In this document: positions 1 through 9,157 of the stretch, one piece after another
How positions within the stretch are numbered: position 1 is the stretch's first letter
Layout: each line of letters begins with the position of its first letter
Translations under genes and position numbers: made by a program
Notes under the pieces: model-generated
Databases searched by the model: none
What the model saw: the letters and a program-made list of their open reading frames with translations, nothing else
What the model was told of the DNA's origin: nothing
DNA from: Bacilli bacterium
Lineage (GTDB): Bacteria > Bacillota_I > Bacilli_A > RF39 > UBA660
DNA: 64,000 nucleotides
Assembly (NCBI GenBank): GCA_045541255.1
Contig: JAZQIU010000027.1
Span: forward strand, 924 to 64,923
Direction: 5' to 3'

Positions 1-58
1 TACAAACACAAACTAAAATCATAATTATAACAATAAGAATTGCTATTATTGTTTCCAT
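1..58 (-). CDS. Small hydrophobic protein, N-terminal fragment running off the window
   Basis: AAGAGG RBS (61-67, minus) then ATG at 58-56. Translation is METIIAILIVIIMILVCVC... Confidence 0.25.
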   Translation of the reverse strand, partial: METIIAILIVIIMILVCVC

Positions 59-189
59 AATTACCTCTTTCTTTTTACTACAACTGTATAAAAGACTTAA
101 ATTATTCCAATCTATATAATATAATATGTGATTTAAAGATTGGAGGCGTTATTATTTCTAAAAAAAGTAAAGATATTTTAGCAATAAAC

Positions 190-429
190 TTGAAATATTA
201 CAGATATAAATCTAAGCTATCACAAGAGAAATTCGCCGAAGCACTTGATACCACCCTTTTATATGAAAATCAAATAGAAAAAGGGAAAAGAAATCCTTCT
301 TTAAATATGCTAGACAAATTATCCAACAATATTTCAAAATTATTAGGTTATTATATTAGTAGTGCTGATTTATTAACTTACGACCAAAATAAAGTTATAA
401 ATTCAAAAAGAGTTGATGAGAAAAAGTAA
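190..429 (+). CDS. XRE-family HTH transcriptional regulator
   Basis: HTH_XRE pattern SKLSQEKFAEAL...YENQIEKGKRNPSLNMLDKLSN. TTG start in the track. The frame stays open upstream to a GGAGG at 142-146, so the true start may be a non-ATG codon near 151-154. Confidence 0.7.
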   Translation: MKYYRYKSKLSQEKFAEALDTTLLYENQIEKGKRNPSLNMLDKLSNNISKLLGYYISSADLLTYDQNKVINSKRVDEKK

Positions 430-766
430 TGCTTAATGCCGTTGTATTACTTTTTTTTATTCAAAAATCTCATATAAGTTAGATACTAAATTTTTGCACA
501 GTTCTAAGATACTTTGAAAGTTTCTCTATTATTCACACTAAATAATAACTATAATTTTATAATTAAGTCTTTTGTTTTTGTGTTCTTTTGTGTATTTTTA
601 CACAATTTTTTATATTTTTCCTCCTTTCCTCAGTAATCCTAGATACTGCATTGATTACTAACAAGTATTATAGCATAAAATTTAAATTTTTGAAATTATT
701 TTTTGCTCGTTTTGTTCGAGCAGTATAAAATCGTTATTTCCTATAAAATTATATATAGGAGGTCTA

Positions 767-1030
767 ATGATGAAATCTGCATACGAGTTATTTAATTTAA
801 TTGGTAAAAACATGAAAATAATCAGAAAAGAACAAATTGGAATATCGCAAGAAAAATTAGCAGAAGACGTTGATATGAGTAGAAGTTTTTTATCACAAAT
901 TGAAAGTCCAAATGTTGATGTCGGTGTTTCATTAGATACTTTATTCTTTCTAGCTCAAAAATACAACTTTGATATTAGAATGTTCTTTGATGGTTATGAA
1001 GAACTAATGAACAAAAAAAGTGAAGATTAA
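767..1030 (+). CDS. XRE-family HTH transcriptional regulator
   Basis: IRKEQIGISQEKLAEDVDMSRSFLSQIESPN...SLDTLFFLAQ. AGGAGG at 757-762, so the second ATG at 770 is better spaced. Confidence 0.8.
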   Translation: MMKSAYELFNLIGKNMKIIRKEQIGISQEKLAEDVDMSRSFLSQIESPNVDVGVSLDTLFFLAQKYNFDIRMFFDGYEELMNKKSED

Positions 1031-1064
1031 TAAGTAAAATATGTTACTTAAAATACCATTTAGA

Positions 1065-1091
1065 AACAATTGCATATAGCATTGTTTTTTA
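1065..1091 (+). terminator. Rho-independent terminator after the 767-1030 gene
   Basis: AACAATTGC-ATAT-AGCATTGTT hairpin followed by a T-run. Confidence 0.6.
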
Positions 1092-1187
1092 TTTTGTAAT
1101 TATTGTTATAATCCATATTTATCAATTATATAATCAAAAAATTTTTCTATTTCATCTTTTGACGTTTCAGCAAGACCTATTTAGAGG

Positions 1188-2240
1188 TCAATAATTAGCC
1201 CTAAATGATACTACAGCATACAATTTATTATTATACTCATAAACAGCTGAAGCCATAGAAATATGGCCATCCCTTAAAATTGTTGCATTATGTGATGGAC
1301 TATTCTTCCATGCTTCTACAAAATCTACACCTATATCGCCATATCCAATTATTTCTCCAAATCCATAACCAGCACCTTCATGAGAATAATATGTTGATAT
1401 TTCTTTTGCTCTTCTATCTGCTTCAGTTTGTGCTTCTACTGTAACTGGCAATTCGTTTAATCCTTTTGATTTTCTATATTCATTTATTTTAATTATATAT
1501 TGATCAGATATATCTTTTCTAAATCTTGGAGAAGATACTGCTGTATTACTTGATGAATTTGATTGAGAGTTATTCGTTGAATTAGAATTATGATTATTAT
1601 TTGATGAAGAAGAATTATTAGAATTACTATTATTAGTATTTGAAATTACAGTTTCTTTTTTAGATTCTTCTTTTTTTGTAATTTCAATCACTGTTTTTTT
1701 ATTAGTTTTATTACCACTCTCATCAACAGCAATAACCTCTATTTCATACTCACCAGGAACTTTTGAATCGTATTCTCCTTCAATTGTAATTTTTACATCA
1801 GTTAAATCTGTTGCTTCAAATTTTGATTCTAAATCTGATATATCTGCGTTTTGCTCATATTTTATTATTTCTTCAAAGTTAGTAAATTCTGGAGAAGTTG
1901 TATCTACTACTTTAATTTTAAATTTTTTAATTTTTGTTTTGTAAGTAATTTCTATTTCGTATTCTCCAATATTTACAATATCATCATTTTTTGAAACTAA
2001 TTTATTATTTTTAACTTTTAACTCTTTTGATGACAATTTATAAATTTTTATATTTTTAGTAGAACTGGCATCATCTAAATAATAAGATACTTCTGCACTT
2101 ATCTCCTCTCCCAATTCAAATATAAATTGATTATCTTTTAATATTATATTATTTGTATCCTTGTATAGTACAATCAGTCCTACTAAAAATACAATTAAGT
2201 TTATTATGCCTACTACTATTATAAATACTTTTTTCTTCAT
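1188..2240 (-). CDS. Secreted/membrane-anchored CAP (SCP/PR1, YkwD-like) domain protein with Ser/Asn-rich linker
   Basis: C-terminal YIIKINEYRKSKGLNELPV...EADRRAKEIS...HEG...VEAWKNSPSHNATIL...AVVSF matches the CAP-domain pattern. Start moved to MKKKVFIIVVG (ATG at 2240) behind GGAGGAG. The longer track ORF (to 2315) lacks an RBS. Confidence 0.75.
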   Translation of the reverse strand: MKKKVFIIVVGIINLIVFLVGLIVLYKDTNNIILKDNQFIFELGEEISAEVSYYLDDASSTKNIKIYKLSSKELKVKNNKLVSKNDDIVNIGEYEIEITYKTKIKKFKIKVVDTTSPEFTNFEEIIKYEQNADISDLESKFEATDLTDVKITIEGEYDSKVPGEYEIEVIAVDESGNKTNKKTVIEITKKEESKKETVISNTNNSNSNNSSSSNNNHNSNSTNNSQSNSSSNTAVSSPRFRKDISDQYIIKINEYRKSKGLNELPVTVEAQTEADRRAKEISTYYSHEGAGYGFGEIIGYGDIGVDFVEAWKNSPSHNATILRDGHISMASAVYEYNNKLYAVVSFRANY

Positions 2241-2302
2241 ACTACTCCTCCTACATCTATGTATCAAATGTGGTATTAAACCACATTTTTTTATAAATCT
2301 AT

Positions 2303-2758
2303 TTAATCTATACAAAAATAGTAAGTTTTTTCATAAATAAATTCAACTTGATTAGAATAAACAGCCAATTGATAAAATGCTTTTGACTTGTTATACCTTA
2401 TGGTTCTTTCTGGTATGTTCATTTTAATAGAAATTTCTTTATCCGTTAAACCATAAAAACATTTCCACTTAAGTATTCCTCCAATAACCTTTTCTCTTTT
2501 TTGTAGGCATAATATAAATTTTATAAAACTGCCAATTTGATCATCAGTCCAAGCAAGTTGTTCTATTAATTTTTTTTCATTTGAATTATCTCCAAATTTA
2601 TCGCTTGAAAAAAATATAAAACTTGCTGAATTTATTTTGCTTTTTTTTAACTGTTTTATTCTTTTTTCAACAAAAGGTTGATATTGTTCATAAATTTTCT
2701 TTCCATTTTTTATTGTTTTTTCTACATCAATTTCTACTATTGCATCGTTTAATATCAT
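2303..2758 (-). CDS. Sigma-70 region-4-like / ArpU-RinA-type phage transcriptional regulator (tentative)
   Basis: C-terminal GLTDKEISIKMNIPERTIRYNKSKAFYQLA resembles a region 4.2-type HTH. About 150 aa, the size typical of ArpU-family proteins. Confidence 0.45.
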   Translation of the reverse strand: MILNDAIVEIDVEKTIKNGKKIYEQYQPFVEKRIKQLKKSKINSASFIFFSSDKFGDNSNEKKLIEQLAWTDDQIGSFIKFILCLQKREKVIGGILKWKCFYGLTDKEISIKMNIPERTIRYNKSKAFYQLAVYSNQVEFIYEKTYYFCID

Positions 2759-2763
2759 TTAAA

Positions 2764-2997
2764 TTATTCACTATCAACATTATCTGTTGAAATAAGTGAA
2801 TTTTTTATTTTTCTTACATTAATTGCTTTCTTTTTCACTTCTTCATAATCAAATTCTACCAAATCATTTTCATCTAATGATTTAAATCCTCTCATGTTAA
2901 TATCTGAATAATGCACAAAAACGTCATTTTCCAACCCTTCACAAGATATAAACCCAAATCCTTTAGCATCATCAAACCATTTTACTTTTCCTTGCAT
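2764..2997 (-). CDS. Cold-shock protein (CspA family)
   Basis: [17 protein letters not shown]...DVFVHYSDI carries the RNP1/RNP2 motifs of a cold-shock domain. Confidence 0.9.
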
Positions 2998-3533
2998 ACT
3001 TTCTTATCTCCTTTTCTACTTGTTTCACTATTACCAACTGCTATATTATATAATATATCAATTCTATTTGTTAATTGATTAATTACTAAATTTACTACTA
3101 CAAATACTACTAACATATAAAAATTTCTCATAAAACTTCCTAATACTAAAAAATTATAAACTAATAAACTACTTATAGGCAGAACAAACAAACTATTAAC
3201 AACACTACTTAAAATTTGTTTTTTTGTATATTTTTGTTTTTTACTTAAATAAAATATTAAAAATAAACACATAATAAAAGTAACAATATAAATATCAAAT
3301 ACAAATGATTTGAAATTAGAAAAATACAATAAATTTTGTTTTGTATAATCTAATACCAAATTATTGTTCATACAAAAAATACTATTTGTCGCTAAATGTA
3401 CGCAATATATCGCTAAAACTACAATTAAAATTTCTTTTAAAACTTTTAATCCTATAGATATTTTATGATACAATTGCATCCTTTTATTATTTCCTTCATT
3501 TTTCCAATACTTCTCCGAATTAAAACTACACAA
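2982..3533 (-). CDS. Multi-pass membrane protein, unknown function
   Basis: Several hydrophobic helices. 3' end overlaps the csp start by 16 nt. The start may be the internal MQLYHK. Confidence 0.4.
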
Positions 3534-3559
3534 ATCTTCATAGAACTGCTTTAATTTTT

Positions 3560-3901
3560 TTATAATTTTTCCTCCCTCTCAATTTCTAAAGATACTGATA
3601 AAGCTTTGTTTATTAATTCCATAGTTTTTTCATCTAAAGTTTTAATATAATAAATGATTTGCTTTTTAGAAATAGTAATTACTTGCTCACATAACGCCAT
3701 CTCATTATTATCAGTCATTACATGGACAGACATTTCTTGTTTTTTTATTTTTGAAGTTAAAGGTACAACAATTAAATTTGGTGAAAATGTATTACCAAAA
3801 TTATTTTGAACAATTAAACACGGTCTTTTTCCCGATTGAATGTGTGCGTTTGTATTTTTTAAATCTACTAAATATACACTTCCTCTTTTAAAATTTATCA
3901 T
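3560..3901 (-). CDS. MazF/PemK-family endoribonuclease toxin
   Basis: KRGSVYLVDL...SGKRPCLIVQNNFGNTFSPNLIVVPLTSKIKK...CEQVITISKKQ is collinear with B. subtilis EndoA/MazF. Confidence 0.85.
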   Translation of the reverse strand: MINFKRGSVYLVDLKNTNAHIQSGKRPCLIVQNNFGNTFSPNLIVVPLTSKIKKQEMSVHVMTDNNEMALCEQVITISKKQIIYYIKTLDEKTMELINKALSVSLEIEREEKL

Positions 3902-4164
3902 ATAAAATAACTATTTACAATACATTCAATTTCTAAAATATAATAAGCATTTAAAGGATACTTAACATTCTTTTTAGGCTTATAAGTTTTGTTATCGTAG
4001 ACAATTCGCAAAACACAAGGAAAACCATGTTGTTTCAGTATTCGTAAAATTTTATCCCTTCCTATTTTTTTAACTATTTCTCTTCCACAGCAACAATTAC
4101 CATATTTTCTTAGATGATGTAATATCCAATCTGGAATCATAATCTTTTCATCAGAAAAACCCAT
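3898..4164 (-). CDS. Hypothetical Cys-rich 88-aa protein; positional candidate antitoxin for MazF
   Basis: Overlaps the MazF start by 4 nt (ATGA). No AbrB/RHH-like motif recognised. Contains GNCCCGRE. Confidence 0.35.
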   Translation of the reverse strand: MGFSDEKIMIPDWILHHLRKYGNCCCGREIVKKIGRDKILRILKQHGFPCVLRIVYDNKTYKPKKNVKYPLNAYYILEIECIVNSYFI

Positions 4165-4202
4165 AATAGTTGCTCCTCTCGTAAAGCTTATGAATATATT
4201 TC

Positions 4203-4391
4203 TTACACTACCTTAATTAAATCAAATGCAAAACAACTTTCAATGTCAAAACAATGTATTTCATCATCACCATCAAAGAAATAATAGATTCTATTGTTTC
4301 TTACTTTGATGATTGTTAAAAAGTAACCGTGATTTTCAGATAGTGGATTATAAACACGATACCTTTCTTTTTCTTTAAAAATCACTATCAC
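4203..4391 (-). CDS. Hypothetical small protein
   Basis: ORF preceded by AGAGG. GTG at 4385 is better spaced than GTG at 4391. An operator copy lies just upstream. Confidence 0.35.
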   Translation of the reverse strand: MIVIFKEKERYRVYNPLSENHGYFLTIIKVRNNRIYYFFDGDDEIHCFDIESCFAFDLIKVV

Positions 4392-4404
4392 CTCTCTTTT
4401 TATA

Positions 4405-4560
4405 GTTCACGATAGTAAACTACAAGTTCAAAAAAAATATACTTCCACTCCATTTATACAACAAAATTTTACTACTACTACTTACTAATACTACAAATAT
4501 TACAGTTTCCTTATCAACAGATCACCTCCGTATTATATTAAGTAGTTCACGATAGTAAAC
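4405..4560. repeat. Two direct copies of the 16-bp operator-like motif GTTCACGATAGTAAAC (4405-4420 and 4545-4560)
   Basis: 19-bp identity TAGTTCACGATAGTAAACT at 4403-4421 and 4543-4561. Each copy sits just upstream (minus-strand sense) of an SD-like GAGGTGAT. Imperfect dyad GTTyAC-N4-GTrAAC. Confidence 0.6.
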
Positions 4561-4669
4561 TCTTATACTAAAATAATAACCTTTATTTTAATAAAAGTCA
4601 ATACCCTCTTTTAAAAAAATTATTTCAAATAAATTGCTGTATAGAAATCCTATACAGCTGATACTATTT

Positions 4670-4987
4670 TCAATCCCTTAATGACTCAACATATTTATCT
4701 AGAATATTCAATGTCTTATCTAATTTTTCTTCGTCTTCAATTGAAATAGTACCGATAGCACCAATTATGTCATATAATTTCTCTAGCTTTATTACCAAAG
4801 AAGTAGATGCTGAAAGTTCCTTTATAGTTGCATCGTAATCTTCTTCAATGTTATTTAATTTTTGTACTACATTTTTAATTACTTCATAAGGCATATCTAC
4901 TTTTTTATCAAGATATTCCTTTAATACTGCTAATACTACTTTTACTTCTTTTACTGCATGTCCTACTTTTTTCTCTTCTTTGTTCAT
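4670..4987 (-). CDS. Hypothetical helical 105-aa protein
   Basis: Long ORF with no recognisable motif. Confidence 0.45.
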   Translation of the reverse strand: MNKEEKKVGHAVKEVKVVLAVLKEYLDKKVDMPYEVIKNVVQKLNNIEEDYDATIKELSASTSLVIKLEKLYDIIGAIGTISIEDEEKLDKTLNILDKYVESLRD

Positions 4988-5014
4988 CTTATCTTATTTC
5001 CTTTCCAATTGGCA

Positions 5015-5185
5015 CTACTTTAGTGATGCTTTTTCCTTCAAGTTCTTTAGACACACCTCTAAAATGCGAATCGTTGATTCTATATCCAACTGGGTAGATA
5101 ATTGCAAACCGTTTTTATCTGTCTTAATTAATATTTTTTTTCTACACCCTTGTTCTGAAGACTGCCCTTTATTCAAAAATTTCAC
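5015..5185 (-). CDS. Hypothetical 56-aa protein (below the ORF-track cutoff)
   Basis: GTG start behind AGGAGAGG. Translation is MKFLNKGQSSEQGCRKKILIKTDKNGLQLSTQLDIESTIRILEVCLKNLKEKASLK. Lies downstream of the leftward switch promoter. Displaces the antisense track ORF 4980-5198. Confidence 0.3.
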   Translation of the reverse strand: MKFLNKGQSSEQGCRKKILIKTDKNGLQLSTQLDIESTIRILEVCLKNLKEKASLK

Positions 5186-5286
5186 CTGCCTCTCCTAGAA
5201 TTATCAGGATGAAAGCATCACCCTAATTTCATTTGTCATATTTTACTACCTCCAAACTACTCATATAACTTTGTTATACATTAAAT

Positions 5287-5315
5287 ATAATACCAAAATT
5301 ATTTCAAATTGTCCA
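5287..5315 (-). promoter_or_regulatory. Leftward promoter of the divergent switch
   Basis: -35 TGGACA (5310-5315), 17-nt spacer, -10 TATTAT (5287-5292). The -35 is embedded in the operator copy at 5311-5326. Confidence 0.55.
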
Positions 5316-5358
5316 CCATCGTGAACAATTATTGCTAAATTTGTTCACGATAGTGGAC
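5311..5358. promoter_or_regulatory. Inverted pair of operator motifs (5311-5326 GTCCACCATCGTGAAC; 5343-5358 GTTCACGATAGTGGAC)
   Basis: Same core as the 4405/4545 copies, arranged as an inverted pair 16 bp apart between divergent promoters. Confidence 0.6.
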
Positions 5359-5382
5359 ATTTAAGAAAAAAGATAGTACAAT
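5354..5382 (+). promoter_or_regulatory. Rightward promoter of the XRE/CI-like repressor gene
   Basis: -35 TGGACA (5354-5359) inside the operator, 17-nt spacer, -10 TACAAT (5377-5382). Confidence 0.55.
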
Positions 5383-5415
5383 AATGTTGTAGTGGTTTAC
5401 GAAAGGAGATTTTAG

Positions 5416-5811
5416 ATGACTAAAGAACAAGCATTAAAGCTGATAATTTTAGATTATTGCTCTGAACATAATCTGATGCCTATTGAATTCGCTAGAAAAT
5501 GTGAACTTAGTAAATCTTACATAAGTAAAATTATTAATGAGAAATTTGGTTCTGTCGGTATTTCATTAACTTATTTAGAACGAATTGCTAATGGATTAAA
5601 TATGAAAATTGTTGACTTGCAAAATTTAATAGATAAATATCAAACAAGTGCTAGCGATGATGAAATAAAAAGAACAAAGTTAATTATTGAAATTATCAAT
5701 AAAGTAGAATCTTACGCAAATAAAGATTTGAATGTATTACATAGCATTATTCTAAACACAAATAGCGAACGTTTAGAAATTTTACATAGTTTGTTAAAAA
5801 ATATGAAATAA
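5416..5811 (+). CDS. XRE-family HTH regulator (CI-like repressor candidate)
   Basis: N-terminal HTH (FARKCELSKSYISKIINEKFG...LTYLERIANGL) plus a helical C-terminal half. AAGGAG RBS. Confidence 0.75.
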   Translation: MTKEQALKLIILDYCSEHNLMPIEFARKCELSKSYISKIINEKFGSVGISLTYLERIANGLNMKIVDLQNLIDKYQTSASDDEIKRTKLIIEIINKVESYANKDLNVLHSIILNTNSERLEILHSLLKNMK

Positions 5812-5828
5812 CATATTTTTTTATTTTG

Positions 5829-6611
5829 CTAAAAATAATCTAATTCATATTCATAATCGTTATTTTTTTCTGGTTCTCTAAACCAACCTAATTCCTCATC
5901 CCACTCTATTTCCTTATTCTTAAACATTTCAATATTATTTAATATTGATGTTTTTAAATATCCAAACTTATTTTCTATAATATTATCATTTTCATCTTTA
6001 AAATGTCGCTGGACTACACTCGATATTATATAATGTGTAATTGTAATTATATCTATAAATTCATATTCTCTTAAAATTTCATCAAAAAACTTATCATACT
6101 TATGTAATTCTACATCTTCTTTATTCAAATATTTTCGTTTGACCAAATCTTCAGTTATTTTATGATGACTAATTTTTTCATTTGAAATGGTTTTATCTAT
6201 TTTATCTATTTGTTCTTTAATATTTTGTTTATTAGTATTTATTTGGGTATGATTTTCCACTGTTGGATAATCCACAGGTGGATTTTCACTACCTGGATTA
6301 TTTTTTTCTTTTAAATTTTCTTGTGGAAGTTCATATATTAAATAATTATACTCAAAATAACCCTTTTCTCCTCTTATTTTATCAACTCTAACATAACCGT
6401 TTTCTTTTAATTCCTTCAAAGTATTTTTTATGGCACATTCTTGTTCTTTACATATAGAACATAAACCACTTAAAGAATAATCCCAATCTTCAGGCAAACT
6501 AAGCATATACGATAACAATCCTTTAGCTTTTAAAGATAAATTTTGATCTCGTAAATGATAATTACTCATAATTGTATAATTTTTGTTTTTTTCTACTCTA
6601 AATACAGACAT
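5829..6611 (-). CDS. Replication-initiator-like HTH protein (DnaD/replisome-organizer N-terminal type)
   Basis: FRVEKNKNYTIMSNYHLRDQNLSLKAKGLLSYMLSLPEDWDYSLSGL...IKNTLKELKENGYV is the pattern seen in plasmid/phage/ICE initiators. Start set at ATG 6611 (GGAAAGGAA RBS), because ATG 6629 directly follows a terminator T-run. Confidence 0.6.
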   Translation of the reverse strand: MSVFRVEKNKNYTIMSNYHLRDQNLSLKAKGLLSYMLSLPEDWDYSLSGLCSICKEQECAIKNTLKELKENGYVRVDKIRGEKGYFEYNYLIYELPQENLKEKNNPGSENPPVDYPTVENHTQINTNKQNIKEQIDKIDKTISNEKISHHKITEDLVKRKYLNKEDVELHKYDKFFDEILREYEFIDIITITHYIISSVVQRHFKDENDNIIENKFGYLKTSILNNIEMFKNKEIEWDEELGWFREPEKNNDYEYELDYF

Positions 6612-6629
6612 ATTACCATTCCTTTCCAT

Positions 6630-6652
6630 AAAAAAAGAACCTATTTAGGTTC
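6630..6652 (-). terminator. Rho-independent terminator after the 6641-7285 gene
   Basis: GAACCTAAATAGGTTC hairpin (6637-6652) then TTTTTTT on the minus strand. Overlaps the stop codon. Confidence 0.6.
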
Positions 6653-7285
6653 TCTCATTTTTTTTAAAATATCATTTTTAAATACTCTTATAAACGGATC
6701 AATAAAATAATTCCATCCTTTTGGATATTCATCATATCCTCCACGAGAAAATGTTTGACCATCATAATAATCTACATATACATTCCATTTAATTTTATAA
6801 TCAAAATAATTTTTTAGTTTTAATGGCTCTGATTTTAATATTTGCGATTTGTCTAATCCTTCTAATATTTTTCTCTTTCTTGCTGGAGTTAATGAGGACA
6901 TATAAGATTTTGTTATAAAATTATGGTCTATATTATAATATGATTTTTCTTCATCCAAATGGATTTCGTATTTCCATTTATCAGTTGAGGTTTCTATTAT
7001 AAAAGTTAATACCTTTATATCTGATAAAATCATATTTGAAATATAATAAAATGGTTTTTTACATTCTGAACAAAACCTATCATAAGTTCTTCTTTTGATA
7101 ATTTTACCATCATATTCTTTTGAATAATGTAAATTAGTATTAGATAGAATTGCTTCGCCTTTTTCAATTCTTTTTACATTACACTTATCTTTATAGTATT
7201 TTGATTCTTTTGGTTGTATATTATCTGTACAAACTATTGCTAAAGTCTTATAAGAGAAACAATATGGACATTGAATTTTTCCCAT
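6641..7285 (-). CDS. Hypothetical zinc-ribbon protein
   Basis: CPYC...CSEC cysteine pairs. AAAGGAG RBS. No family recognised. Confidence 0.45.
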   Translation of the reverse strand: MGKIQCPYCFSYKTLAIVCTDNIQPKESKYYKDKCNVKRIEKGEAILSNTNLHYSKEYDGKIIKRRTYDRFCSECKKPFYYISNMILSDIKVLTFIIETSTDKWKYEIHLDEEKSYYNIDHNFITKSYMSSLTPARKRKILEGLDKSQILKSEPLKLKNYFDYKIKWNVYVDYYDGQTFSRGGYDEYPKGWNYFIDPFIRVFKNDILKKMREPK

Positions 7286-7411
7286 TTAATCAACTCCTTT
7301 TTAACTGTATAAATTCAAAATTTTAAAATTTTTTATTATTTCGCTTAAGACTATTTTATCATTTTTCCCTTTAAAATAAAGGGTTTCCACAGTTTTAGAT
7401 TAAATTTTAGA

Positions 7412-7714
7412 CTATCCCAACGCTATCGGTACAGCATAAGTTGAAAACATCACTCCGTAATTAGGATCAAAGTTATCAACTGCTTTTATTAATCCTACAC
7501 AACCAATTTGAAATAAATCATTCATATCATGTTTTCCGTTATTATATTTTTTTATAATACTTAATACAAGTTTTAAATTCCCATTTACTATATCTTCTTT
7601 TGCTAATTCATTACCATTTTTATATTCTTTAAATTTTTCTAGCATTTCATCATTTTTTAACACTTTCAATAAATTTGTATTTATTCCTGTTATATCTACT
7701 TTGTATTTGCTCAT
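7412..7714 (-). pseudogene. Truncated SigF/SigG-type sporulation sigma factor (regions 1.2-2.3 only)
   Basis: MSKYKVDITGINTNLLKVLKNDEM..., VNGNLKLVLSIIKKY, DLFQIGCVGLIKAVDNFD and FSTYAVP are collinear with B. subtilis SigG/SigF. After YAVP the frame reads IALG-stop instead of MIIGEIRR, and no region 3/4 coding follows. Confidence 0.7.
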
Positions 7715-7718
7715 ATAA

Positions 7719-7755
7719 AAATTCCTTTCACCAAAGCTATGGTTAAAAGGAATTT
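7719..7755 (-). terminator. tyrS terminator
   Basis: AAATTCCTTT/AAAGGAATTT arms followed by a T-run. Ends 4 nt before the sigma-fragment ATG. Confidence 0.65.
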
Positions 7756-7789
7756 ATTTTATTCACTTTATTTTTTATAAAGAATATAA

Positions 7790-9010
7790 TTATTTACCTA
7801 TAAAATATTTTTTCTTTCCTTTTCTAATAATTAAATATTGTTCAAATAATAAATCATCTTTTGTAATTATTTTATTTTCATCAGTAATTTTTTCGCCATT
7901 TACTGTAATACTATTATTTGTTAAGAATTCTCTAGCTTCTCTTCTTGAAGATGCAATATTATTATTAACTAATATATCAATTATTTTTTCGTCTAAATCT
8001 AATTCAAAAGTTGGAACACCTTTAAATGCACTTTCTAATTCACTACTTGTTAATTCATTTATTTTTCCACTAAATAAACATTCACTTATTTTAACAGCAC
8101 TTTCGTATTCTTCAATACCATGTAAATCTGTTATTACTTCACGAGCTAATGCTTTATGTGCTTCTCTTAAATGTGGATTTTCTAAATGATTTTTTTCAAT
8201 TGTTTCGATTTCTTCTTTTGATAAGAATGTTAATTTCTTTAAGTATTCAATTATCATACTGTCTTCTAAATTAACTAAGTATTGATACAATTCATAACTA
8301 GATGTTTTATTTTTATCTAACCATAAAGCATTTCCTTCTGTTTTTCCAAATTTAACTCCATTAGAATCAGTTACTAATGGCATAACCATACCATATACTT
8401 CTTTATCCAATTTTTTTCTTACTAATTCTATTCCTGAAGTTATGTTACCCCATTGGTCTGATCCTGCTACTTGTAATGTTACTCCTCTAGTTTCATATAA
8501 ATGTAAGAAGTCTAAAGCTTGTAAAATCATGTATGAGAATTCTGCATAAGTTATACCTGTTTCTAAACGTGATTTAACTTTATCTTTAGCTAACATATAA
8601 TTAATATTAAAATATTTACCATAATCTCTTAAAAAATCAATTACATTTATATCTTTAGTCCAATCAAAGTTATTAACAACTTCGAAGCCAAATATTTTTT
8701 CAGCTTGTGCTTTTAATCCTTTAAAATTCTTTTCTACTTCTTCTTTTGATATCATTGGTCTTTCAGTATTTGGTTTAGGATCTCCTATCAATCCTGTTGC
8801 TCCACCTACTAAAAGTATTGGATGATGTCCTGCTTTTGCAAGTCTTTTTGATATCAAGAATGAAGAATAATGTCCTATATGCATTGAATCTGCTGTCGGG
8901 TCCGTTCCTATATAAAATGTTATTTCTTCTTCATTTAATAATCTTTCTAATTCTGGATTACTAATATCTTGTATTAATCCTCTCCATTTTAAATCTTCAA
9001 ATAATTTCAT
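7790..9010 (-). CDS. tyrS: Tyrosine--tRNA ligase
   Basis: HIGH (DSMHIGH) and KMSKS-like (KFGKT) motifs, C-terminal S4 domain. Start at MKLFEDLKWRG behind GGAGGA. T-box leader upstream. Confidence 0.95.
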   Translation of the reverse strand: MKLFEDLKWRGLIQDISNPELERLLNEEEITFYIGTDPTADSMHIGHYSSFLISKRLAKAGHHPILLVGGATGLIGDPKPNTERPMISKEEVEKNFKGLKAQAEKIFGFEVVNNFDWTKDINVIDFLRDYGKYFNINYMLAKDKVKSRLETGITYAEFSYMILQALDFLHLYETRGVTLQVAGSDQWGNITSGIELVRKKLDKEVYGMVMPLVTDSNGVKFGKTEGNALWLDKNKTSSYELYQYLVNLEDSMIIEYLKKLTFLSKEEIETIEKNHLENPHLREAHKALAREVITDLHGIEEYESAVKISECLFSGKINELTSSELESAFKGVPTFELDLDEKIIDILVNNNIASSRREAREFLTNNSITVNGEKITDENKIITKDDLLFEQYLIIRKGKKKYFIGK

Positions 9011-9157
9011 ACTTTTCCTCCTATAAAAAAACATCCATAAACTTAAGGGCGAATATTCCGCGGTACCACCTTAATTCTATGAATGTGCTCATATCTTTAT
9101 TTATCTTATCGCGATATACGTTTTAACTCCAGGGTCGTAAATCCTTTCTTCGTTAAC
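9011..9157 (-). promoter_or_regulatory. T-box leader (Tyr), unusually short
   Basis: T-box sequence AAUUAAGGUGGUACCGCG (9059-9076). UGGU bulge fits an A73 discriminator. Candidate specifier UAC (9137-9139) in GGAUUUACGACCCU. Long hairpin 9069-9085/9032-9048 followed by U7. Confidence 0.8.

Follow-up and report, generated by a model that had tools for sequence, protein, structure and literature searches.

Probable division of the forespore sigma-factor gene sigG by site-specific integration of a mobile element in uncultured gut Bacilli

In a 64,000-nucleotide stretch of DNA from a Bacilli bacterium (contig JAZQIU010000027.1 of assembly GCA_045541255.1, positions 924 to 64,923, referred to below as the window) the gene for the late forespore sigma factor, sigG, ends after codon 96 at the edge of a mobile element. 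The 5′ part of the gene has very probably been cut off by site-specific integration of this element, carried out by a large serine recombinase (LSR) of the TP901-1 type. According to the mechanism that we propose, the attB site of the LSR would lie within sigG, at the boundary between regions 2.3 and 2.4, with strand exchange at the CC of the Pro96 codon. Integration would then produce, at one end (attL), sigG codons 1–96, the CC and an element arm that adds IALG and a stop codon (window 7404–7429) and, at the other end (attR), the LSR gene, ∼43–48 nucleotides, a mirror-image arm, the CC, sigG codons 97–258 and ylmC.

The truncated open reading frame (ORF), on the reverse strand at 7412–7714, encodes a product of 100 amino acids that aligns with positions 1–100 of the 258 of the NCBIfam SigG equivalog model NF006071 (129 bits, E 2e-37), scores lower against SigF, SigK and SigE than against SigG and contains a Pfam Sigma70_r2 match. 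The original prediction, made from the letters of the window and its ORFs, had it that the frame follows forespore sigma factors from residue 1, as is indeed the case, and that IALG-stop occupies the place of region 2.4. Here too the comparison agrees, with the C-terminus reading ...FSTYAVP-IALG-stop where intact relatives read ...FSTYAVP-(L/M)I(L/I)GE(V/I)(K/R)R, for example ...FSTYAVP-LILGEVKRF.... Host sigG codons 1–96 (regions 1.2 to 2.3) occupy 7427–7714, the last residue being Pro96 (CCG at 7427–7429), while codons 97–100 and the stop (I-A-L-G, 7412–7426) are foreign and come from the element arm. No trace of SigG residues 101–258 was found anywhere in the 64-kb window by tblastn with an intact orthologue as query. 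Between the stop of the ORF and the first of the mobile-element-type genes there are 126 nucleotides of non-coding DNA (7286–7411), so that the predicted sequence of gap and then mobile genes also holds, with Pfam and PHROG matches beyond. A pseudogene arising by point mutation was considered and rejected, as the DNA past codon 96 is unrelated to sigG yet conserved among split alleles.

That the ORF of 100 codons represents the beginning of the orthologous and syntenic sigG of the host itself follows from comparison with a set of relatives, one genome per species, comprising 80 loci from uncultured gut metagenome-assembled genomes labeled 'Bacilli / Tenericutes / Erysipelotrichaceae'. In 79 of these 80 reference genomes sigG is intact, with a length of 253–259 residues. 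The closest locus, L001, has an intact gene of 258 codons whose product is 94% identical in amino acid sequence to the window part, and its tyrS...sigG neighborhood shows 89–90% DNA identity to the window, with homology ending at window 7428. In both the related species and the window the upstream neighbor of sigG is tyrS (7790–9034 of the window, reverse strand, named by its translation and by the original prediction and not through a family search); L001 has two additional ORFs between the two genes. A ylmC/ymxH-type PRC-barrel gene lies directly downstream of sigG in L001, L067, L092–L095 and L107, and spoIIGA (Peptidase_U4) and sigE lie upstream in L082–L091 and L096–L103. On NF006071 (positions 1–257) the intact orthologues reach 324 bits (L001) and 351 bits (L067), just below the curated cut-off of 372, and on the SigF models 240–269 bits, lower than on SigG. 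Homology, synteny and the type of promoter described below thus identify the target as the forespore gene sigG.

The boundary between host and element is identical in 8 attL and 9 attR sequences, and the CC is invariant. In the window this dinucleotide, the first two bases of the Pro96 codon and the core of attL as established by boundary comparison, lies at 7428–7429 on the reverse strand. Homology between the split allele of L088 and the intact one of L067, which are from the same species and 98–99% identical, ends at the CC of the Pro96 codon, and contigs of intact alleles depart from the window at 7428. Every attL has host sequence ...TATGCnGTn-CC followed by (A/G)ATAGC(AC/GT)T(C/G)G(A/G)(C/A)TAGTCTAAAAT, and the recombinase-side junctions have, before the CC, ...TTTAGACCAGTCGA(G/A/T)(T/C)GC(T/A)(A/G)TT, the reverse complement of the attL arm. 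The element-side arm of the window (P′ half-site), 24 nucleotides reading GATAGCGTTGGGATAGTCTAAAAT at 7404–7427 on the reverse strand, is conserved at this junction in L025, L082, L088, L091 and L120. Its reverse complement is nearly identical to the arm found before the CC at recombinase-side junctions. Written in the same sense, the reverse-complemented P arm is AATAGCACTCGACTGGTCTAAAT and the P′ arm AATAGCACTCGACTAGTCTAAAAT. The two arms co-vary around the CC, GCAC occurring with GTGC and GCGT with ACGC; past the CC, the intact attB of L067 and L001 differs. Judged from these sequences, the anatomy of the junctions is that of a serine-integrase attP, consisting of two inverted half-sites and a central dinucleotide, that would have recombined with an attB inside sigG. 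Hybrid sites of this kind, formed without target duplication, are the mark of LSR integration, and the 8 attL and 9 attR sequences agree with this pattern.

The enzyme itself is seen at the far junction in relatives. Three proteins of 162 amino acids start at the residue after Pro96 (MILGEVKRY...), and in L095 an LSR of 449 amino acids (Resolvase, Recombinase and Zn_ribbon_recom domains) is followed, after 48 nucleotides, by the 162-residue 3′ fragment of sigG on the same strand and then by ylmC. A metagenome scan with the L095 LSR yielded 7 loci holding the 3′ end of a 79–86% identical enzyme, and in 7 of 7 sigG residues 94–257 follow ∼43 nucleotides after it. An LSR with Resolvase, Recombinase and Zn-ribbon domains stands at the element's edge in both L095 and L107. 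The closest solved structure to its N-terminal catalytic domain is that of TP901-1 integrase (3bvp, E 1e-29), and its best phage relative is 43.5% identical; searches of IMG/VR with the LSR, and with the 214-residue protein encoded next to attL that is described below, gave no relatives closer than 25%. Just before the LSR is a conserved gene for a Zn-finger protein of 141–144 amino acids, a candidate directionality factor, and a comparison of the 214-residue attL-side gene with the 144-residue form revealed no similarity. In the window genome the LSR and sigG codons 97–258, followed by ylmC-lspA-rluD, probably lie beyond the left edge of the window.

Further features were observed around the recombinase end. 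The sequence TTGCAGTTTAGACATAGC, conserved just before the ribosome-binding site of the LSR gene (L107:9950-10000, L095, L106), resembles an att arm (TTTAGAC...GC) and may be an autoregulatory binding site. Just downstream of ylmC in L107 (12751-13905) there is an ORF of 384 codons, named by eye from its translation, that is TnpB-like and of IS200/IS605 type. In L116 (10001-11978) and L114 the LSR-family gene is truncated at residue 267, and in L116 the truncated gene is joined to unrelated host DNA with a complete, intact sigG ∼400 nucleotides further on. The L116 arrangement is not explicable by a simple deletion and could be due to a chimera or to a circle that, once excised, inserted illegitimately upstream of sigG.

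Several points weigh against integration by the LSR as the account of the window. Only attL and 7.4 kb of the element are visible in the window genome, and no type IV secretion system (T4SS), relaxase or recombinase gene was found in these 7.4 kb in Pfam and PHROG scans; the original prediction was thus right that no recombinase sits beside the junction, none being recognized in window 1–7411. No single contig was found with both attL and attR, the longest view being 19.8 kb with the end of the element not reached. Exact-protein look-ups of the LSR and of its ylmC neighbor led only to short contigs or only to intact alleles, never to both junctions, and the proteins of the window were either absent from the contig index or present only on a contig of 586 nucleotides. 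The circular form, attP, was not found with a degenerate pattern in IMG/VR and JGI metagenome contigs. Finally, the P′ arm of the window differs from the commoner variants at 4–5 of its 24 positions.

In order to gauge how widely the break recurs we rely on a search limited by length to truncated SigG proteins, which gave 1,257 matches of which the best 120 were inspected. Among these 120, 47 end in ...STY(A/C)(V/C)P-IA(LD/LG/FD/FG/-)stop. At a threshold of 95% identity the corresponding 47 host parts make up 42 clusters, and compared in pairs they are 67% identical at the median; some of the fragments are on contigs of 100–323 kb. On this sequence evidence, the break is a junction of a site-specific recombinase and recurs in ∼42 host lineages of uncultured gut Bacilli. 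Several other truncated fragments in the inspected set (P0001–P0120) read ...STYxxP and then (I/T/M)(I/A/T)LG(W/L/Q)S or IARDSP; these may represent a second element family at the same codon. An assembly or binning chimera, in which host and element contigs were joined at a short common sequence, might be suspected given that the window is probably from a metagenome-assembled genome and that the junction motif is common to many genomes. It is very improbable, however, as an independent contig from run X4 spans 6270–7438 and the identical type of junction is found in dozens of independent assemblies, on contigs as long as 323 kb.

The empty site is found in the same species. In the public metagenome runs X1 and X2 the host flank is present with 0–3 mismatches per ∼650 nucleotides at a depth of 50–110, and past 7428 the contigs continue CCA CTT ATA TTA GGC GAA GTA AAA AGA TTT, that is, P-L-I-L-G-E-V-K-R-F; one contig of 2,291 nucleotides from X2 spans sigG-ylmC-lspA (placed on L001). 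Strains nearly identical to that of the window, and of its own species, therefore carry an intact sigG in these two runs. Other split fragments have intact counterparts of the same kind: intact L067 shares 99% identity with P0062 and L058 shares 97% with P0024, while for P0011 there are full-length alleles at 99–100% identity, among them a cluster with 302 members. The number of index blocks is 23 for P0062, as against 3,276 for the ylmC-like neighbor of the same species, a rough ratio since the short ylmC-like protein may be common to related species, and all eight of the places shown for that neighbor have an intact sigG. Intact alleles are thus present in the species of the window and in those of P0062, P0011 and P0024, and are dominant where counts are available.

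These data also bear on a suggestion of the original prediction, that the ORF is a decayed sigma gene brought in by the element. The gene does abut mobile DNA, some phages carry sporulation-type sigma factors and phage-encoded homologues of SigF and SigG are known (PMC9429907). Relative to the junction, however, the fragment is on the side of the host; it shows synteny with tyrS and 94% identity to a neighboring species' chromosomal sigG, and in strains that lack the element the gene at this locus is complete. With intact alleles in X1 and X2 and synteny with L001 the suggestion is refuted, and what probability we leave to it is negligible.

The elements are polymorphic within species, move horizontally between species and are present in a minority of strains. 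Over 10.3 kb the commonest of them shows 99.1–99.3% identity among three host species that differ in the genes upstream (ftsAZ-spoIIGA-sigE..., mraZ...spoIIGA-sigE... and rluD), and for the two of these hosts with sigE in view the identity of the sigE regions is only 74%. Next to one LSR, with the same P arm throughout, four different host B′ arms were found. The element in the window (1–7427) is present as a single unit, 98–99% identical and at 4–7x, in three unrelated metagenome runs from three studies. In run X16 the window element's final 97 nucleotides, which show 1 mismatch, adjoin the sigG of another species (...YDVKLSTYAC|P), again at this CC. Such recent movement argues against the view that the window preserves a dead-end remnant, a plain pseudogene whose LSR end and sigG 3′ half were later lost or rearranged. 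Its far end is out of view, its arm is a divergent variant and rearranged relatives do exist, namely L116 and L114 with their LSR cut short at residue 267 and, in L116, abutting host DNA. Against this stand the junction in X16, the near identity of the 7.4 kb in the three unrelated studies and the retention of the 3′ half in all 7 readable LSR loci, and we consider a remnant to be improbable.

The leader of sigG (7715–7789, reverse strand), in which a motif scan and a fold place a promoter-like motif and a hairpin, is of the kind expected for a forespore gene. The sigma-F/G promoter consensus of B. subtilis is GHATR-N17/18-CATnnTA, and the pattern G[ACT]AT[AG]-N17/18-CAnn[ACT]TA occurs within 120 nucleotides upstream of sigG in 48 of the 80 relatives, as compared with 0.6% of shuffled sequences. 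The motif lies ∼50 nucleotides before the start codon in the relatives inspected, and the forespore-type promoter-like motif of the window, GAATA (7760–7764)-N18-CATAGCT (7735–7741) on the reverse strand, is at the same place. It was noted in the original prediction as weak evidence; its presence is confirmed, and in view of its frequency among the relatives 'weak' understates it. The hairpin between tyrS and sigG (7719–7755, reverse strand) was predicted to be the tyrS terminator, ending 4 nucleotides before the ATG, and it is real by calculation (-18.2 kcal/mol, z = -3.3). Its 3′ arm includes the Shine-Dalgarno sequence of sigG and its loop the putative -10 element, and from its sequence it can double as the terminator of tyrS. 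With the Shine-Dalgarno sequence paired, RNA reading through from tyrS would be untranslatable, and the ribosome-binding site would be exposed only if transcription starts at the sigG promoter, an arrangement that recalls the read-through control of B. subtilis sigG. A similar arrangement, with the pattern TTCCTTT...AAAGGAA, recurs in many relatives.

Disruption of sigG blocks sporulation after engulfment (PMC8102284), so that a cell bearing the element should be asporogenous unless excision is precise. In the mechanism proposed here the integrated state would leave no functional sigG, and sporulation would halt after engulfment unless the LSR, together with a directionality factor, removed the element exactly; we infer both the sporulation phenotype of element-bearing strains and any excision. 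It is conceivable that such excision is programmed, occurring in the forespore or just before septation to restore sigG, with a replicating circle that reintegrates at germination. The architecture is that of skin and SPβ, with the LSR at the element's border, directly upstream of the 3′ piece of the gene; the element brings a replication initiator of its own and sigG retains its conserved forespore-type promoter-like motif. The two gene pieces are, moreover, always in frame and undamaged, although this is equally expected after a recent insertion. In run X4 attL is present on a contig of depth 6.2 and an intact sigG from the same species on another of depth 5.3, and in X40 and X54 contigs break off at the crossover or shortly after it; these results are, however, explained as well by mixed strains or mixed hosts. 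The X40 contig (depth 150) ends at L107:11397, at the crossover, and that of X54 (depth 23) matches to 11419, just past it, as expected for a branch of the assembly graph, be it between attR and attP or among several hosts.

Other results count against programmed excision. The insert is the minority allele in all four species tested, so that it is not a fixed part of development. No motif of the sigma-F/G type was found near the LSR or its neighbors, matches within the elements being at chance level, although a motif scan tests this weakly. Neither IMG/VR nor the JGI metagenome contigs yielded an attP contig. We therefore regard programmed excision as unlikely, if far from fanciful. A minority allele in every species tested, recent transfer between species and the lack of a sporulation-type promoter near the LSR speak for sporadic insertion over a fixed developmental device. 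Also unlikely, to our minds, is a rearrangement of the germ line, whereby the hand-over from sigma-F to sigma-G would need precise excision in the inherited genome, a circle in the spore and reintegration at germination or, as another option, the element would block sporulation so as to hold its host in a vegetative, conjugation-competent state.

The visible part of the integrated element is its attL-proximal end, window 1–7427, delimited by the lack of homology to L001 or host DNA and by its occurrence as a unit in the three runs. Next to attL is a conserved orphan gene (6641–7285, reverse strand) for a protein of 214 amino acids with two CxxC pairs, which has a 59% identical homologue at the same position in L082–L091 and L120. 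The protein has no Pfam, PHROG or NCBIfam match, its family comprises only 17 clusters among 1.84 billion proteins and for its AlphaFold model (pLDDT 84.7) the PDB offers no match at E ≤ 0.001. The protein is thus an orphan specific to the element and possibly an accessory or directionality factor. Beside it is a gene for a replication-initiator-like protein, HTH_36/DnaD-like (5829–6629, reverse strand; Pfam HTH_36, PHROG replication initiation, E 4e-24), with a 52% identical homologue at the same position in other elements. An XRE/CI-type repressor (5416–5811, forward strand; Pfam HTH_26 and HTH_3, PHROG transcriptional repressor) is divergent from the genes to its left. These include, as cargo, a MazF/PemK toxin (3560–3901, reverse strand; Pfam PemK_toxin, E 6e-24) and a secreted CAP-domain protein with Ig-like domains (1188–2315, reverse strand; Pfam CAP and Ig-like), together with an ArpU-like or sigma region-4-like activator (2303–2758, reverse strand; PHROG 248, E 2e-9, weak Sigma70_r4_2) and an XRE-family regulator (767–1030, forward strand; PHROG transcriptional regulator, Pfam HTH_19 and HTH_3 on an identical product). 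The gene list also holds a cold-shock protein and, in all, the XRE repressor and two further XRE regulators.

All members of the family have the orphan gene, of 211–214 codons, and the replication initiator beside attL, and their content beyond that varies. The variant in L089 encodes regulators (HTH and MerR) and a coupling protein of the VirD4 type, and it also has a radical-SAM gene. In the commonest variant, whose length is 19.8 kb or more, there are a GreA-like gene, a cluster for the modification of small molecules or sugars, an M23 peptidase, two XRE regulators and (L120:16886-20318) a SpaA/TED-type surface protein of 942 amino acids with its own sortase. Some 19.5 kb from attL in this variant (L120:20555-20720, also L121 and L122) there is a gene of 125 codons with a resolvase domain only, whose nucleophile region looks degenerate (AVYISLKNS). 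The DAHP-synthase-like gene of the commonest element occurs in 1,953 index blocks, from which the element or this cargo gene would be very common in gut metagenomes. At the LSR end of another variant, L107, are a coupling protein and a protein of 2,095 amino acids with an SNF2-type helicase domain, and the family is also described with methylase/SNF2 helicase and toxin-antitoxin genes in different members. The coupling proteins of L089 and L107 are of the VirD4/TraG type found with T4SS; no relaxase, VirB4 or full T4SS was seen in the parts of the elements recovered, nor were phage structural genes seen in the elements. A blastn search of the 7.4 kb against phages and plasmids returned only short matches to rep, mazF and csp genes, so that no known phage or plasmid corresponds to the element. 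From their gene content the elements are probably integrative conjugative or mobilizable elements and not phages.

Named elements that split sporulation genes include skin, SPβ, phi3T, vfbin, vrin and gin. Such elements are described in sigK, spsM, kamA, spoVFB, spoVR and gerE, and almost all known cases are in genes of the mother cell (PMC4191935, PMC6957869); because the mother cell is discarded, as the accepted explanation has it, the elements can be excised in every generation and yet be inherited. A full-text literature search found no paper on a split sigG. The skin element of sigK is excised by SpoIVCA with Skr in B. subtilis and by CD1231 with a directionality factor in C. difficile, and it has been surveyed by Galperin in 15 species (bioRxiv 10.1101/2022.02.25.481979). 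As in skin, the elements described here split a sporulation sigma-factor gene within its coding sequence, position the LSR gene at the insert's border, just upstream of the 3′ fragment, and have few genes in common besides the recombinase. Skin elements, however, are fixed, vertically inherited defective prophages in a gene of the mother cell, whereas those in sigG are polymorphic, recently transferred and similar to integrative conjugative elements, use a TP901-1-like LSR and interrupt a gene that acts in the forespore, and thus in the inherited genome. No evidence of sporulation-timed excision was found for them. The original prediction that an intervening element, analogous to skin, divides a sigma gene of the host accordingly stands as regards the split itself, given the synteny, the ∼42 lineages and the LSR at the far junction of relatives; the analogy extends to the architecture and not to a fixed mother-cell insert.

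The SPβ and phi3T prophages in spsM and kamA, with SprA and SprB (PMC4191935, PMC6957869), are similar in that a mobile element uses an LSR to integrate inside a sporulation gene and that carrier and non-carrier strains coexist. They differ in being phages that interrupt genes of the mother cell and whose directionality factor has a proven mother-cell promoter, whereas no phage structural genes were seen in the sigG elements and the target is a forespore gene. Tn5397 with TndX and Tn4451 with TnpX are integrative conjugative or mobilizable elements of Firmicutes with serine recombinases. With these the sigG elements share a serine recombinase as integrase, insertion into coding sequence and, in some cases, a coupling protein; the attB of the sigG elements is, in contrast, in sigG and used across ∼42 host lineages, and the parts recovered showed neither a relaxase nor a complete T4SS. 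The Listeria phage phi10403S in comK is an example of active lysogeny in a non-sporulating host. It too interrupts a regulatory gene that is dispensable for growth, so that reversible excision could act as a switch; the difference is that phi10403S is a phage in a host that does not sporulate and that its reversible excision has been shown. In Anabaena heterocysts the XisF recombinase of the fdxN element is likewise an LSR that excises an element from a developmental gene. The LSR of the sigG elements scores 143 bits against NCBIfam XisF, far below the family cut-off of 375, and is thus not an XisF orthologue, and the heterocyst is a terminal cell, unlike the forespore.

The short, defined att sites and the compact LSR of 449 amino acids constitute a new integrase/att pair for tools in Firmicutes that are hard to manipulate. 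As a target sigG is unusual, for it works in the future spore and not in the disposable mother cell, and this leads to one of two outcomes. If the element is excised during sporulation, the mother-cell rule would not be absolute, excision then being handled in the inherited genome. If it is not, the elements would be natural, transmissible knock-outs of sporulation. Both outcomes bear on the gain and loss of spore formation, the main route of transmission of many gut anaerobes.

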